Positions 21,141 to 52,800 of a DNA stretch of 64,000 nucleotides are shown in pieces; the first letter of the stretch is position 1; each line of letters opens with the position of its first letter. The translations under genes were made by a program, and so were the position numbers. Under the pieces are notes generated by a model. That model searched no databases. It saw only the letters and a program-made list of their open reading frames with translations, and was not told the origin of the DNA. The stretch spans positions 3,596,001-3,660,000 of the forward strand of contig JAWMAR010000202.1 of NCBI GenBank assembly GCA_036785375.1, read 5' to 3'. The DNA is from Leucoraja ocellata (Eukaryota).

Positions 21141-21429
21141 GACCCCGGGAGAGAGGGAGAGTCGGCCCCGAGAGATAGAGAGAGGGGAAAATGGGAGATA
21201 TATTCCATCCGCCAACTCAAAGTGGGGGGGATATATTATCCCCCAGTTTTTGGAGGTCGAGTAACAACAAAAAACTCTCTCTCTCTCGTATCACGACTGC
21301 GCTGTCATTGGCCATTGAGCCGCGCTGTGAACCGCGCTGTCATTGGCCATTGAGCGGAGGGGAGAAACATACAAAATAGGTGCAGGAGTAGGCCATTCGG
21401 CCCTTCGAGCCTGCACCGCCATTCAATAT

Positions 21430-24400
21430 GATCATGGCTGATCATCCAACTCGGTATCCTGTTCCTGCCTTCTCTCCATACCCCCTGATCCCTTTAGCCA
21501 CAAGGGCCACATCTAACTCCCTCTTAAATATAGCCAATTAACTGGCCTCAACTACCTTCTGCGGCAGAGAATTCCAGAGATTCACCACTCTCTGTGTGAA
21601 AAAAAGTTTTCCTCATCTCGGTCCTAAAAGATTTCCCCCTTATCCTTAAACTATGACCCCTTGTTCTGGACTTCCCCAACATCGGGAACAATCTTCCTGC
21701 ATCTAGCCTGTCCAACCCCTTAAGAATTTTGTAAGTTTCTATAAGATCCCCCCTCAATCTTCTAAATTCTAGCGAGTACAAACCGAGTCTATCCAGTCTT
21801 TCTTCATATGAAAGTCCTGACATCCCAGGAATCAGTCTGGTGAACCTTCTCTGTACTCCCTCTATGGCAAGAATGTCTTTCCTCAGATTAGGAGACCAAA
21901 ACTGTACGCAATACTCCAGGTGTGGTCTCACCAAGACCCTGTACAACTGCAGTAGAACCTCCCTGCTCCTATACTCAAATCCTTTTGCTATGAATGCTAA
22001 CATACCATTCGCCTTCTTCACTGCCTGCTGCACCTGCATGCCTACTTTTAATGACTGGTGTACCATGACACCCAGGTCTCGTTGCATCTCCCCCTTTCCT
22101 AATCGGCCACCATTCAGATAATAATCTACTTTCCTGTTTTTGCCACCAAAGTGGATAACCTCACATTTATCCACATTATACTGCATCTGCCATGCATTTG
22201 CCCACTCACCCAGCCTATCCAAGTCATCTTGCAGCCTCCTAGCATCCTCCTCACAGCTAACACTGCCCCCCAGCTTCGTGTCATCCGCAAACTTGGAGAT
22301 GTTGCATTCAATTCCCTCGTCCAAATCATTAATATATATCGTAAATAGCTGGGGTCCCAGAACTGAGCCTTGCAGTACCCCACTAGTCACTGCCTGCCAT
22401 TGTGAAAAGGACCCATTCACTCCTACTCTTTGCTTCCTGTCTGCCAACCAGTTCTCTATCCACATCAATACTGAACCCCCAATACCGTGTGCTTTAAGTT
22501 TGTATACTAATCTCTTATGTGGGACCTTGTCGAAAGCCTTCTGAAAGTCCAGATATAACACATCCACTGGTTCTCCCTTATCCACTCTACTAGTTACATC
22601 CTCGAAAAATTCTATAAGATTCGTCAGACATGATTTACCTTTCATAAATCCATGTTGACTTTGTCCAATGATTTCACCACTTGCCAAATGTGCTGCTATC
22701 CCATCTTTAATAACTGATTCTAGCAGTTTCCCCACTACCGACGTTAGACTAACTGGTCTGTAATTCCCTGTTCTCTCTCCCTCCCTTTTTAAAAAGTGGT
22801 GTTACATTAGCTACCCTCCAATCCTCAGGAACTACTCCAGAATCTAAAGTGTTTTGAAAAATTATCACTAATGCATCCACTATTTCCGGGGCTACTTCCA
22901 TAAGTACTCTGGGATGCAGCCTATCTGGCCCTGGGGATTTATCGGCCTTTAATCCATTCAATTTACCTAACACCACTTCCCGGCTAACCTGGATTTCACT
23001 CAGTTCCCCCATCTCATTTGACCCCCGGTCCCCTGCTATTTCCGGCAGATTATTTATGCCTTCCTTAGTGAAGACAGAACCAAAGTAGTTATTCAATTGG
23101 TCTGCCATGTCCTTGTTCTCCATGATCAATTCACCCGTTTCTGACTGCAAGGGACCTACATTTGTTTTAACTAATCTTTTTCTCTTCACATATCTATAAA
23201 AGCTTTTGCAGTCAGTTTTTATGTTCCCTGCCAGTTTTCTTTCATAATCTATTTTCCCTTTCCTAATTAAGCCCTTTGTCCTCCTCTGCTGGTCTCTGAA
23301 TTTCTCCCAGTCCTCTGGTAGGCAGCTTTTTCTGGCTAATTTGTACGCTTCATCTTTTGTTTTGATACTATCCCTGATTTCCCTTGTTATCCACGGATGC
23401 ACTACCTTCCTTGATTTATTTTTTTGCCAAACTGGGATGAACAATTGTTGTAGTTCATCCATGCAGTCTTTAAATGCCTTCCATTGCATATCCACCGTCA
23501 ACCCATTAAGAATCAATCGCCAGTCTATCTTGGCCAATTCACGTCTCATACCCTCAAAGTTACCTTTCTTTAAGTTCAGGACCCTTGTTTCTGAATTAAC
23601 GATGTAACTCTCCATCCTAATGAAGAACTCAACCATATTATGGTCACTCTTGCCCAAGGGGCCTCGCACAACAAGACTGCTAAGTAACCCTTCCTCATTA
23701 CTCGATACCCAGTCTAGAATAGCCTGCTCTCTCGTTGGTTCCTCTACATGTTGGTTTAGAAAACTATCCCGCATACATTCCAAGAAATCCTCTTCCTCAG
23801 CACCTTTGCCAATTTGATTCACCCAATCTATATGTAGATTGAAGTCACCCATTATAACAGTTTTACCTTTGTTGCACGCATTTCTAATTTCCTGTTTGAT
23901 GCCATCCCCAACTCCACTACTACTGTTAGGTGGCCTATACACAACTCCCACTAGCGTTTTCTGCCCCTTAGTGTTTCGCAGCTCTACCCATATCGATTCC
24001 ACATCCTCAAAGCTAATGTCCTTCCTCTCTATTGCGTTAATCTGCTCTCTAACCAGCAACGCTACCCCACCTCCTTTCCCTTTCTGTCTATCCCTCCTGA
24101 ATATTGAATATCCCTGGATGTTCAGCTCCCAGCCTTGGTCACCCTGGAGCCATGTTTCCGTGATCCCAACTATATCATAGTCATTAATAGCTATCTGCAC
24201 ATTCAACTCATCCACCTTATTACGAATGCTCCTTGCATTGCGACACAAAGCCTTCAGGCTTGTTTTTACAACACTCTTACCCCTTATACTATTATGCTGA
24301 AAAGTGGCCCTTTTTGATTTTTGCCCTGGATTTGCCGGCCTGCCACTTTTACTTTTCACCTTGCTACCTATTGCTTCTACCCTCATTCCACACCCCTCTG

Positions 24401-24487
24401 TCTCTACGCTCACACATTTAAGAAACCCTTTCTCTTTAACTCCATCCTCCACTATCCCATTCGACACCCCACCCCCCTTATTCAGTT
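21430..24487 (-). pseudogene. CR1 ORF2 (APE endonuclease + reverse transcriptase) with three lesions
   Basis: ORFs 22749-24542 and 21548-22735; frameshifts near 22770 and 21600; TCA>TAA at ~21539 relative to the copy at ~43120. Confidence 0.9.
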
Positions 24488-25408
24488 TAAAACCACGCGT
24501 GTAGCAGTGGCAAACCTGCCTGCCAGAATGCTGGTCCCACACCTGTTAAGATGCAATCCGTCCCTTTTGTACAGGTCCCCCTTACCCCAAAACAGATCCC
24601 AGTGATCTAAGAATCTAAATCCCTGCCCCGTGCACCAGTTCCTCAGCCACACGTTCAAGTCCCGTATCTCCCTGTTCCTGCTCTCGCCAGCACGAGGAAC
24701 TGGAAGCAAACCGGAGATAACAACCCTGGAGGTCCTGCTTTTCAGCATTTTTCCGAGCTCTCTAAAGTCAAGCTGCAGAATATTCATCCCCTTCTTTCCG
24801 ACATCGTTTGTGCCGACATGCACTACCACTTCCGGATGTTCACCTTCGCCCTTGAGGATTTTCTGCACTCTGTCCGTGACATCCTGGATCCTGGCACCAG
24901 GAAGGCAGCACATCATCCTCGCATCCCGTCTGTTGCCGCAGAAACCCCTGTCCGTACCTCTCACAATGGAGTCTCCCACTACAATGGCGTTGCCTGCCTT
25001 AGGCCTTTTTGGTTTCGGCTCAACAGCCCTATTCGCATCGCAAGCCAGTCCGCCGCTCAGTGTAAACACGTCTTCTGTCCCGACAGCTTCTAAGTGGGTG
25101 AACCTGTTCACAAGAGGTACAACACCCGGGGACGTTGGCATTCCATGCTTCCCTCCCTTTCTCACTGTCTCCCACCTTCTCTCTTCCAGTACCTTAGGTG
25201 TAACAATCTTACTGTAGGACTTGTCGAGGAACGACTCTGTTTCTCGGACGAACCGGAGGTCATCCACTTGCTTCTCCAGTTCCCCAACACGGTCCTTCAG
25301 GAGCTCTACCTGGATGCACTTCTCGCATTTGTAGCAGCCAGAGGCACCAGCGTTGTCCTTGACCTCCCACATACTGCAAGCATCGCACTGAATCAGCTTG
25401 CCTGACAT
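24482..25408 (-). CDS. CR1 ORF1p: N-terminal Zn-finger/coiled coil plus SGNH esterase, 308 aa
   Basis: CDAC..CEKC, VVGDS, HVGTND and DGLHLN motifs; uninterrupted from ATG to TGA. Confidence 0.92.
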   Translation of the reverse strand: MSGKLIQCDACSMWEVKDNAGASGCYKCEKCIQVELLKDRVGELEKQVDDLRFVRETESFLDKSYSKIVTPKVLEERRWETVRKGGKHGMPTSPGVVPLVNRFTHLEAVGTEDVFTLSGGLACDANRAVEPKPKRPKAGNAIVVGDSIVRGTDRGFCGNRRDARMMCCLPGARIQDVTDRVQKILKGEGEHPEVVVHVGTNDVGKKGMNILQLDFRELGKMLKSRTSRVVISGLLPVPRAGESRNREIRDLNVWLRNWCTGQGFRFLDHWDLFWGKGDLYKRDGLHLNRCGTSILAGRFATATRVVLN

Positions 25409-27299
25409 CTCCTTCTTTCGTCTCTAACTCTCAAGTGTATTGCGTGGTCTCCTCTCTGAAGACACTCGAGCCAAAGACTCACACTTTACTCACAGGGCAC
25501 TTCCCTCACTATGCCGCTCACTCACTGCCGCTCCCTAAGAGCTGTCTTGTTTAAATTGACTGATAAATTGCCCAATTTACAAACCAATTCCTCAGTTTTC
25601 AACTGTTTTCCCGGCACCGACTCACTTCTATCCTCCCACTCGGGCTAGAGCCAATCAGTCTGATCTCTTGCTAATCTCCTCCTGCTGTTGCTCCCAAATC
25701 TACAGCAGTTCTGAGGGAGGGTTTTGTGGGGGGGGGGGGGGGGGGGGGGGGCAGTCGGTTTCTGCCACGGCTGGTCGTGGTTTTGCCTTGCTCACTGTGC
25801 GATTGTTCTGAGATTCTGGATGTTGGAGGTCCTCAGAAGAAGAGAAAAATACGCCTGTGGGCCAGATAATTTCGGGTTATGAAGCAATGTGTCGGCAAAA
25901 AACGTGGAGGGTCTGCAGCCCCCCCGGTTCCGTGGCCCATGCAAGCGGTCACCAGAGAAAGTCACCATGGAAGGGTAATCCATAACGAATCCAGTTGCAT
26001 TTGGGGTCAGAAAAATAGTTGACAAGAATGTTGCTTAAATGGTGAACTTTTAATATTTGTTCATCCTTGCTATTGATTCCTGTACAGAATGTGGAATAGC
26101 AGGCAATCGTCTAAGACGTTTACATTGAATAGCTTTGATGTATTTAAAGACAGGCTGGACAAATGTGAAAAAGAGAATGGGGGATTTTAAGGAAACTTAA
26201 GTACAACCTAAATGCTGCCATGGACTTGTTGCGTTAAGTAGCTGGTTTGCATTGAATGTAATCCTATGTAATATGCTGGAAGATGGGATGCAGAGGGAAC
26301 ATATTCCAGATGGAGAAATATCAGTGATGCCAGATTGTTTGATATCTGTACTCATTCTTCACTATCTGCAACAATAAACTGAACAAATCAATTTGTAGTC
26401 CATGTATACAGACATGTAGAGTATACATGAACACTAAGCAAGGAGGCTCAGTAAATTTGTAGATGGGGCAGGAAGTTGCAGAGAACATGGATCACGCACC
26501 AGGCTAAATTGCCATAAATGAAGTTCATTTTGGATTCAGGCAGGTGAATTCTATTGAAAAGAGTTGAGATTTCACTTTACATGCAAATCAAAGGCAGTAT
26601 AATGCATAAAAAGATTACTAATTAAAATTGGAATATTGTTCTTTATATCAAGGGAACTAAGTGCATAGGAGAGGGATTGTAATTTTTGATTGCATTCTAC
26701 AGTTGGGAACATTGTGCTGCAAATGAAATAGTGCTTCCAGTTCTGGGAATCTCCCCAAGATAGTTTTGTTTTTAAGAGTGCAGTACAGGCCTCAGAGTTA
26801 AATAGCATAGCAGGTTACATAAACAATTTCACATGTTCTTAAATCTCAAAGGTTGACAAGAAGATTTCAAAAATGAATTAAAAGGTTGATGGACAAAAAA
26901 ACATTTCCTCTTTCACATGATTTCCATAAAGGAGCCATTCAAAAGGAAACCAGGAACTAGGAAAATATTTTTTATACAAAAGGCCATGGATGATGAGTCA
27001 ATAACATACAGGCATGCAAATCAGGAACAAGAGTAGGTCATCAAACCTGCTCCACACTCACAAGTTCATGGGTGGTTTGACTGTAACATCAACTCAACAT
27101 TCTAGTCTGTTCACTGTAATCTTTAACCCTTTTGCAAGAGTACCTGCGACTACCACCTCCTGAGGAAGTATATTCCAGACATCATTTTTCACCCAGACGG
27201 TGGCAGAATTCTTCAAATTCCCTTTACAACTCTTGTCCCTCATCTTAAATCTCTATTAAGGGGAATATTTTCACATTAACTACTCTACCCTACCTATGG

Positions 27300-28244: not shown

Positions 28245-28930
28245 TCATAAGGAATAGTAGAATGCCATTCGGCCCATCAAGTCTACTCCGTCATTCAATC
28301 ATGGCTGATCTATCTACACCTCCTAAACAAATTTCTCTGCCTTCTATCCATAATCTCCGACCTGTACAAATCAAGAATCTATCTATCTCTGCCTTAAAAA
28401 TATCCACTGATTTGGCCTCCACAGCCTTCTGTGGCAAAGAATTCCATAGACTCACCACCCTCTGACTAAAGACATTTCTCCACATCTTCTTCCTAAAAGA
28501 ACATCCTTTAATTCTGAGGCTATGATCTCTAGTTCTAGACACTCCCGCTAGTGGAAACATCCACTCCACATCTACTCTATCTAAGCCTTTCATTATTCTG
28601 TATGTTACAATGAGGATCCCCCTCAATCTTCTAAACACCAGCAAGTACAGGCCCAGTGCCGACAAACGCTCATCATAGGTTAACCTACTCATTCCTGGGA
28701 TCATTCTTGTAAACCTCCTCTGGACCCTCTCCAGTGCCAGCACATCCTTCCTCAGATATGGTGCCCAAAATTGCTCGCAATATTCCAAATGCGGCCTTAC
28801 CAGCGCCTTATAGAGCCTCAACATTACATCCCTGTTTTTGTAAACAAGCTCTCTTGAAATAAATGCTAGACTTTGCACCTCCGATTTCTGGATTCTCGCC
28901 CCATTTAGAAAATAGTCTACGCCTTTATTC
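28245..28930 (-). mobile_element. 5'-truncated, internally deleted CR1
   Basis: ORF 28291-28995: LYKALVRPHLEYCEQFWAPYLRKD..LERVQRRFTRMIPG. Confidence 0.9.
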
Positions 28931-42936: not shown

Positions 42937-43248
42937 CATAGAAACATAGAAACATAGAAAATAGGTGCAGGAGTAGGCCATTCGGCCCTTCGAGCCTGCA
43001 CCGCCATTCAATATGATCATGGCTGATCATCCAACTCAGTATCCTGTACCTGCCTTCTCTCCAAACCCCCTGATCCCTTTAGCCACAAGGGCCACATCTA
43101 ACTCCCTCTTAAATATAGCCAATGAACTGGCCTCAACTACCTTCTGTGGCAGAAAATTCCAGAGATTCACCACTCTCTGGGTGAAAAATGTTTTCCTCAT
43201 CTCGGTCCTAAAGGATTTCCCCCTTATCCTTAAACTGTGACCCCTTGT
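42937..43248 (-). mobile_element. Young CR1 3' fragment inserted at the centre of a fold-back element (42848-43300)
   Basis: Nearly identical to 21364-21668; (catagaaa)n tail; TCTGAA on both sides. Confidence 0.9.
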
Positions 43249-43605
43249 TCTGAAGAAGGGTCTAGATCCGAAACGTCACCTATTCCTTTTCTCCAGAGAT
43301 AATACCCCCCTACCAAAATATAAAATGGTCTAATCATTTTTTTTTTTTAACAGCTCAAGCTAGGTGAACAAGTATCATGCTTTTAATCTCTCATCTCCAG
43401 GCAGTAAAATGGGATTAAAGGGCATATTTTATCAACTGCCCTTCAGAGTAAGTCAAATGGTCTGTCAGCACTTTCCTTTATTACTATGGTTGTGAAACAC
43501 AGGAATGGATTCCTTAAAATAGAGAAGATTTTATTATAGAATAATTGACCAGATTTTTGCTCATTGTTCCCTTTAATCAAATTCACTTTGTTTAGTCTGA
43601 TTTAT

Positions 43606-50201: not shown

Positions 50202-50808
50202 AGGGCCTGTCCCACTTTCCCGAGTTATTCATGAATTCTCCTGATTTATCCACGAATTCTCCCGAGTTTTCAAACTCGCAGAATGTTCGTAACAAGTCCG
50301 TAAGAGGCCGTAAGAGTCCGTGGATATATCGTAGCGGCTCGTTATGCCAGCCGTAGGTACTCGGGGCTATTTTTTACTCGTGGACATTTTTCATCAGGCT
50401 GGAAAAAACGTCCTAGAAACATAGAAACATAGAAATTAGGTGCAGGAGTAGGCCATTCGGCCCTTCGAGCCTGCACCGCCATTCAATATGATCATGGCTG
50501 ATCATCCAACTCAGTATCCCGTACCTGCCTTCTCTCCATACCCCCTGATCCCCTTAGCCACAAGAGCCACATCTAACTCCCTCTTAAATATAGCCAATGA
50601 ACTGGCCTCAACTACCCTCTGTGGCAGAGAGTTCCAGACCTACCTGATGCCCTGAGTACCTACGGCTGGCATAACGAGCCGCTACGATGTATCCACGGAC
50701 TCCTACGGCCTCCTATGGACTTGTTACGAACATTCTGCGAGTTTGAAAACTCGGGAGAATTAATGAATAATAACTCAGGATAATTTGTGAATAACTCTCG
50801 AAAGTGGA
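50202..50808. mobile_element. Palindromic Harbinger-like MITE with a CR1 3' fragment (50414-50638, minus) at its centre
   Basis: TAA|AGGGCCTGTCCCACTT terminus; arms tcgtagcggctcgttatgccagccgtaggtactc / gagtacctacggctggcataacgagccgctacga. Confidence 0.82.
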
Positions 50809-52669: not shown

Positions 52670-52800
52670 TTCAAGGGGTATGGGGAGAAAGCAGGAACGG
52701 GGTACTGATTTTGGATGATCAGCCATGATCATGTTGAATGGCGGTGCTGGCTCGAAGGGCCGAATGACCTACTCCTGTACCTATTTTCTATGTTTCTATG
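52670..52800 (+). mobile_element. CR1 3' tail fragment
   Basis: Reverse complement of the 21364 tail; ends ttctatgtttctatg. Confidence 0.85.

Follow-up and report, generated by a model that had tools for sequence, protein, structure and literature searches.

The window, a stretch of 64,000 nucleotides, carries on its reverse strand a copy of a CR1-type LINE of the family here called F1. The copy is 4.35 kb long and near full length, with a broken ORF2. Its features are listed below in window positions.

21363..25715, minus strand: CR1-type LINE copy, family F1 (96.2% identity over 4370 nt to the genomic copy L205; CR1-type 3′ end)
25596..25715, minus strand: single 5′ UTR repeat unit (the stretch matches three times in L205 and L002)
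24482..25408, minus strand: ORF1, 308 aa, with an N-terminal Cys motif and an SGNH/GDSL esterase, ending ...RVVLN-stop (PF13472, E 3.6e-12)
24485..24491, minus strand: slippery heptamer U_UUA_AAC in X_XXY_YYZ phase with ORF1 (from the sequence; identical in 11/11 lineages)
24482..24484, minus strand: ORF1 stop immediately 3′ of the heptamer, TGA in this copy and either TAA or TAG elsewhere among the families (from the sequence)
24467..24477, minus strand: G-run G6-T-G4, candidate linear stimulator (G at +8 to +12 past the stop in 9-11 of 11 lineages)
24258..24485, minus strand: −1-frame linker of ~76 codons, rich in K/G/S/E, from the slip site to the endonuclease (from the sequence)
24384..24386, minus strand: in-frame ATG in the linker, a possible reinitiation codon for F1 (34/34 copies with a 227-nt linker)
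22749..24257, minus strand: endonuclease and tether part of ORF2, lying in the −1 frame relative to ORF1 (PF03372, E 3.8e-12; open frame)
21548..22801, minus strand: ORF2 reverse transcriptase part (PF00078, E 1.6e-32)

The SGNH esterase of ORF1 scored 47.6 bits against a cut-off of 32.9 for PF13472, and the APE endonuclease (PF03372) and reverse transcriptase (PF00078) of ORF2 were both above their cut-offs. In the window copy a loss of 2 nt near 22772, visible as a gap relative to L203 and L205, separates the reverse transcriptase part from the endonuclease frame, and an additional T is found near 21605. Copies L203-L205 and L207 end in TTTCTATG-type short tandem repeats without poly(A), and the 3′ end of the window copy is a degenerate version of these repeats. 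The nearest named proteins come from a skate; the genome comprises 3.44 Gb. The element is probably a CR1 clade LINE with an esterase ORF1, as judged from its domains, its 3′ end and a junction that resembles, by eye, those of elements labelled CR1 in the covered part of PMC13343379. The 5′ UTR of family F1 consists of tandem units about 147 nt apart, three in other copies and one in the window copy. The sequence CCCTCC at 25716-25721 and 21356-21361, on either side of the element, is a possible 6-nt target-site duplication, and a 22-nt C run lies directly outside the 5′ end.

ORF1 ends GTG GTT TTA AAC TGA, with TTTAAAC (24491-24485) in X_XXY_YYZ phase, as given in the preliminary description. 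The same description had identified the −1 frame with the ORF2 frame, and this was confirmed: its open stretch extends from 24545 to 22749 and includes the endonuclease. Past the shift, 578 −1-frame codons are open in the window copy, up to the 2-nt loss near 22772, and copy L203, from a sister family, has one open −1 frame of 997 codons starting at the slip site. The 7-nt spacer TGAATAA, the G6 (24477-24472) and G4 (24470-24467) tracts and the later GG/GGG tracts are likewise present as claimed.

Copies of the same family are 97-100% alike, so that counts of copies are not independent and carry little information; divergent lineages were therefore gathered instead. The set comprised eight ORF1 lineages of the same genome and three metagenome contigs, with 30-85% amino acid identity; where residues are shared, 26-80% of the codons are the same. 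All representatives had been selected for an intact end, and the lineages are related, so these are not 11 independent trials. The sequence T-TTA-AAC-stop was exact in all 11. The residue was invariant in ten columns. A single codon was used in just two of them, the last Leu (TTA, 11/11) and the Asn (AAC, 11/11); the remaining eight used two to six codons each, and the two other invariant Leu columns showed five and six different codons. The codon preceding Leu-Asn ended in T in 11/11 lineages, with varied residues (V, T, D, G, S, H or Y). The conservation of T TTA AAC at synonymous positions, proposed in the preliminary description as a check, was thereby found in every lineage. Background usage at the ORF1 ends of the 11 lineages was 18/125 for TTA among Leu codons, 28/60 for AAC among Asn codons and 0.26 for T at third positions, which puts the chance of the whole heptamer at about 0.018 per lineage, compared to 11/11 seen; the product 0.018^11 overstates independence because the representatives were chosen with an intact end and the lineages are related.

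An unbiased picture is given by the tally within the genome, which comprised 208 non-duplicate loci, 190 of them anchored and 18 without anchor. Heptamer and stop were exact in 163 of the 190 anchored loci; 13 kept the heptamer and had lost the stop, 11 of these belonging to one amplified dead clade, and in 14 the heptamer was changed or the locus rearranged. Two samples drawn by an upstream pattern blind to the site gave 49 exact loci out of 54 anchored ones. The −1 frame was kept in 125/165 copies and was lost in 40/165, mostly through small indels. We read both the 27/190 loci without the exact site and the 40/165 copies out of frame as decay after insertion. Twenty older copies fetched by motif were too decayed for their frame to be assessed. 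The 15 metagenome loci included five with the exact site, three mutated or frameshifted relatives of those, five without a CR1-type end, and two (L128 and L129) that end otherwise; the latter are more distant esterase elements (~34% identity) that lack the slip site. Searches of viral and prokaryote collections returned distant SGNH proteins only, without a usable junction. The search with P0007 at E 1e-125 gave no matches, and those with P0004 and P0017 gave matches mostly from an amplified dead clade. A dead CR1 copy was seen at about 20 places, mostly small contigs (L061-L078, L092, L095, L097, L099), with premature stops in ORF1 common to the copies and an ORF1 stop that is now AAG, which suggests that it spread by duplication and not by retrotransposition.

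The distance from the ORF1 stop to the endonuclease differs between families, the modal values being 227, 140, 146, 311, 179 and 173 nt for the same genome and, for the metagenome loci, 80 and 107 nt, and every one of these values, from 80 to 311 nt, is 2 mod 3. The linker of copy L002 contains no stop in the −1 frame compared to 10 and 9 in the other frames. The preliminary description had asked whether relatives keep the −1 frame open before the ORF2 ATG; no stop was found ahead of the first ATG or the endonuclease in 9/9 representatives, with shuffle P values of 0.006-0.44 each, and in intact representatives the frame stays open all the way to the endonuclease.

The linker ATG of the window element (24386-24384) begins 95 nt past the ORF1 stop and is present in 34/34 copies of F1; an in-frame ATG is also found in 16/16 copies of F5 and in 20/30 copies with a 140-nt linker. 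An in-frame AUG before the endonuclease is absent in 5/5 of the 146-nt copies, in 10/30 of the 140-nt copies and also in L221, L120, L121 and L122. In the lineages without such an AUG the first Met comes 8-86 residues after the endonuclease's NARS motif (86 in L157), the Asn of which is catalytic. For Zorro3, the endonuclease mutation N17A lowered retrotransposition to <5% according to the text covered of PMC1965478. The caveat raised earlier, that a downstream ATG would allow reinitiation at ORF2, stands for the window family, where the ATG occurs in 34/34 copies; it is weakened by the other lineages because these have no in-frame AUG before the endonuclease. An AUG overlapping or adjoining the ORF1 stop in the ORF2 frame was found in one of 11 lineages only, F3, in the form of a UAAUG stop-start overlap, and is absent in the window family. 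Families F1, F2c and F3 (L002, L170 and L103) have ORF2 endonucleases that are 94-95% identical in nucleotides, with ORF1s only 66-67% alike, and their distances to the common ATG, 95, 179 and 47 nt, all fall in a single frame. This pattern points to CR1 families having exchanged ORF1/5′ modules at joins within the linker, and the surviving swaps kept the register upstream of the ATG.

Downstream of the stop, G was found at positions +8 to +12 in 11, 10, 11, 9 and 9 of the 11 lineages (background 0.34), and the invariant Gs begin 11 nt after the heptamer. Genome-wide, the pattern heptamer-TRR-N7-GGGG gave 10,857 matches compared to 90 for a control. The G-quadruplex that the preliminary description had put forward as stimulator was not borne out, no canonical three-tier quadruplex (loops up to 7 nt) being found in 13/13 rows. 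A conserved quadruplex was rejected also on G4Hunter values, which were 0.96-1.12 in 5/13 rows, and ViennaRNA placed none in the window family; the window family itself had a G4Hunter value of 2.0, and a two-tier quadruplex could form there. Local hairpins were equally rejected, since 60- and 100-nt folds 3′ of the site were not above shuffles (60-nt folds, −1.7 to −8.0 kcal/mol with z from −2.0 to +0.9, 12 rows). No shared long-range partner of the G-run emerged in 12 longer loci, some of them incomplete: their best duplexes were at positions unrelated to one another. Neither pseudoknot-like pairing nor a stable structure 3′ of the heptamer was found in the rows folded. The motif UGGGA, by which caliciviruses reinitiate, had no fixed upstream position and was absent in 2/11 lineages. 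By the alignment, the conserved downstream feature is a single G-run at a fixed distance of about 10 nt past the heptamer; the G-run is visible also in crocodilian and shark consensuses in the covered part of the PMC13343379 supplement.

RNA reads came from four runs (X21-X24) with a related species label, and stem from many mostly dead copies. About 1,300-1,500 reads covered the heptamer in X21 and X22 and 100-120 in X23 and X24. No splice joints were found at the junction in the four runs. Indels at a level of at least 1% were confined to the G6 run past the stop and to position 24539, with none in the heptamer, and among 40 of the 141 variant rows none fell within 24484-24491. The adjoining base 24492 varies three ways in the reads, and the stop alternates between TGA and TAA, with TGA>TAA in ~12% of X21 reads. 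A 194-nt skip in four X21 reads was rejected as splicing, having no GT-AG ends and being located after the stop. The bulk of reads was about equal on both strands, so that autonomous transcription is not shown by them, and none of the indexed sequences carrying the element was recorded as RNA.

At the protein level, 116 relatives of ORF1 were compared. The catalytic His block was present in 91, and 87 end at most 45 aa past it; 77 of these 87 have LN as their C-terminal end and 10 end otherwise. Rays, sharks, coelacanth, frog, turtles and monitor lizard are among the sources of the named proteins ending in LN. The residue before LN is K, E, Q, M or W, which have no codon ending in T, in 2/77 relatives, compared to 33/77 and 29/77 at the two positions further upstream. 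In the covered part of the PMC13343379 supplement, a table of 400 letters per consensus in which species are given by abbreviations and which is too rough for a test of frame, 18 of 23 matches to heptamer plus stop lay at CR1 ORF1 ends by eye and the other five were unrelated AT-rich or 5′ matches. The consensuses with the motif there are from alligator, crocodile, bearded dragon, bullfrog, bowfin and coelacanth and, further, from elephant shark (chimaera), sharks and rays, with one element labelled Crack. The covered part of the PMC4316615 supplement had matches at ORF2 3′ ends only. The supposition noted at the outset, that other vertebrate CR1 ORF1s also end in TTTAAAC-stop, is borne out by the 77/87 relatives ending in LN and by the published consensuses.

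The heptamer, its phase, the adjoining stop, the open −1 frame and the conservation at synonymous positions are demonstrated by these data. The site is very probably a programmed −1 frameshift signal that lets esterase-type CR1 LINEs produce ORF2 as an ORF1-ORF2 fusion; this reading, originally proposed for the window copy, is supported at the sequence level by the same Leu and Asn codons and preceding T in its relatives together with the open −1 frame. Most ribosomes would terminate directly after Leu-Asn and release ORF1p. A minority would slip one base back on U_UUA_AAC, where the tRNAs for Leu and Asn would pair anew with UUU and AAA, and ...RVVLN would then read on as LNKGGG... via a variable flexible linker of 26-103 codons into ORF2. 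The product would be an esterase-endonuclease-reverse transcriptase fusion of ~1,300 residues, made at a low set ratio as is retroviral Gag-Pol. The weakest step of this scheme is the stimulator, which would consist of a slow stop codon and a short, unfolded G-run about 10 nt downstream, the latter acting in linear form at the entry channel of the ribosome via a bound protein or pairing with rRNA. We give somewhat better than even credence to the wider proposition that esterase CR1s, the prevailing retroelement in most jawed vertebrates, have used one −1 signal since before the split of sharks and bony vertebrates, producing a Gag-Pol-like fusion by a shift that is driven by stop codon and G-run without folded structure, a type of stimulator so far undescribed in natural use.

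ORF2 could alternatively be translated by termination and reinitiation in the −1 frame, at an AUG or independently of one, with the heptamer and G-run serving as reinitiation signals. Such routes are known from mammalian L1, where ORF2 is initiated without AUG dependence, and from the UAAUG overlap of SART1 (text covered of PMC5009743, PMC3708506 and PMC1965478); F3 has the same overlap, the linker ATG is found in F1, F2c, F3 and F5, and AUG-free reinitiation at the stop would equally need a −1 frame open from the stop. It would, however, leave a canonical X_XXY_YYZ heptamer in exact phase unexplained. The −1 codon over the stop is ATG in only 1/11 lineages, being AAT, GAA, AGT, GAT, AAA or GAG in the rest, and UGGGA is neither fixed upstream nor present in all lineages (absent in 2/11). 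Moreover, the frame to the common ATG was kept through three module swaps, and reinitiation at an AUG needs no such frame. We consider reinitiation an unlikely explanation; it fits L1, SART1 and the AUG-bearing families and could coexist with frameshifting.

Conservation of the G-run without structure would be expected of a protein-binding site, and the motif might then be an RNA or DNA signal apart from decoding (binding of ORF1p or a host protein, packaging, transcription), with ORF2 translated by internal or non-AUG initiation, as IRES-like initiation is discussed for non-LTR ORF2s in the text covered of PMC3894237. Such a signal would have no need to hold one codon phase right ahead of the stop or to keep a −1 register across linkers of 80-311 nt, and we regard it as very unlikely. 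That the frames are joined in the RNA, by splicing, transcriptional slippage or editing, is highly improbable. The site does contain T4 and A3 runs as well as the G-run, G-runs can act as splicing enhancers, and in two ray gene models (P0031 and P0067) the −1 frame continues across the junction; but the four RNA runs were without joints or heptamer indels at the 1% level, a test diluted by many mostly dead copies, and with TGA or TAA as the stop in many families there is no conserved AG acceptor. Chance, common ancestry or a protein constraint on the C-terminal Leu-Asn is barely conceivable as the whole explanation: the 97-100% likeness of copies within families, which makes their counts non-independent, speaks for it, but between lineages synonymous sites are near saturation and yet all 11 have the same TTA, AAC and preceding T, and five and six different codons are used at the two other invariant Leu columns.

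Frameshifting at the CR1 site would share its heptamer class with coronavirus and arterivirus ORF1a-1b and with retroviral gag-pol, in which the downstream polymerase ORF also lies in the −1 frame, behind an upstream structural or accessory ORF. In the text covered of PMC5009743, −1 frameshifting at UUUAAAC is textbook for coronaviruses, and U_UUA_AAC is listed for IBV and ranks among the heptamers most prone to shifting on mammalian ribosomes. CR1 differs from the viral sites in being a non-LTR retrotransposon, in the stop directly after the heptamer and in having no predicted pseudoknot or hairpin. Unstructured 3′ stimulators like the CR1 candidate are used with arterivirus nsp1beta/PCBP and in cardiovirus and Semliki Forest virus; the same text gives distances of 11-15 nt for certain linear stimulators and spacers of 11-14 nt for those of arterivirus and cardiovirus. 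The CR1 motif is G-rich, whereas theirs are C-rich, and the likeness to these factor-dependent stimulators is in spacing only. Among LINEs there is already a precedent for frameshifting in Dictyostelium TRE5-A and TRE3-A, APE-type non-LTR elements that require a −1 frameshift for ORF2 translation according to a legend in the review PMC5911963. They belong to another clade and host and have a non-esterase ORF1, whereas in CR1 the heptamer is fixed across jawed vertebrates. Mammalian L1 and silkworm SART1 share with CR1 a bicistronic LINE RNA and the need for low ORF2 output, and F3 has a UAAUG overlap; L1 and SART1 make a separate ORF2p, in contrast to the conserved slip heptamer, often without AUG, of CR1. 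Translation of ORF2 in two-ORF LINEs is described as unresolved in the covered parts of PMC3894237 and PMC3708506. CR1 is unmentioned in the text covered of PMC5009743, which treats L1 ORF2 as unusual initiation; a word search found no 'frameshift' in PMC13343379 and PMC3905857, and in the covered parts of PMC11835228 and PMC5006619 the word refers to other elements only. Our literature search gave no proposal of CR1 frameshifting; its scope did not extend to the 1997 papers on CR1 of chicken and turtle or the 2003 paper on the esterase, which may have suggested it.

The two-ORF LINE cases that have been tested use reinitiation, and a −1 site in CR1, if true, would set the most widespread vertebrate LINE group apart from them. 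The N-terminal part of ORF2p would then be the membrane-binding esterase ORF1p, ORF2 annotations beginning at AUGs within the endonuclease would need correction, and natural variants of a frameshift cassette without a folded stimulator would be at hand in their thousands.

Several further observations were made on related sequences. The window contains other CR1 pieces at 28256-28802, 42939-43252, 50414-50638 and 52676-52800, namely one older reverse transcriptase fragment (67% identity) and three 3′-end fragments of a close family. Four database proteins (P0112, P0031, P0067 and P0055) have esterase and endonuclease in one frame, one of them with an apparent extra base at the site and the rest being gene models; the record of P0055 bears a plant name, but the protein resembles a vertebrate CR1. 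Loci L171-L190 belong to a very young CR1 family with at least 127 copies whose ORF1 protein is 99-100% identical to P0071, and the length of the G-run differs in 4/20 of these loci. Finally, the distant CR1 ORF1 proteins P0058 and P0062 have an SH3-family domain ahead of the esterase (PF14604/PF00018, precomputed Pfam), and the C-terminus of P0058 is still LN.
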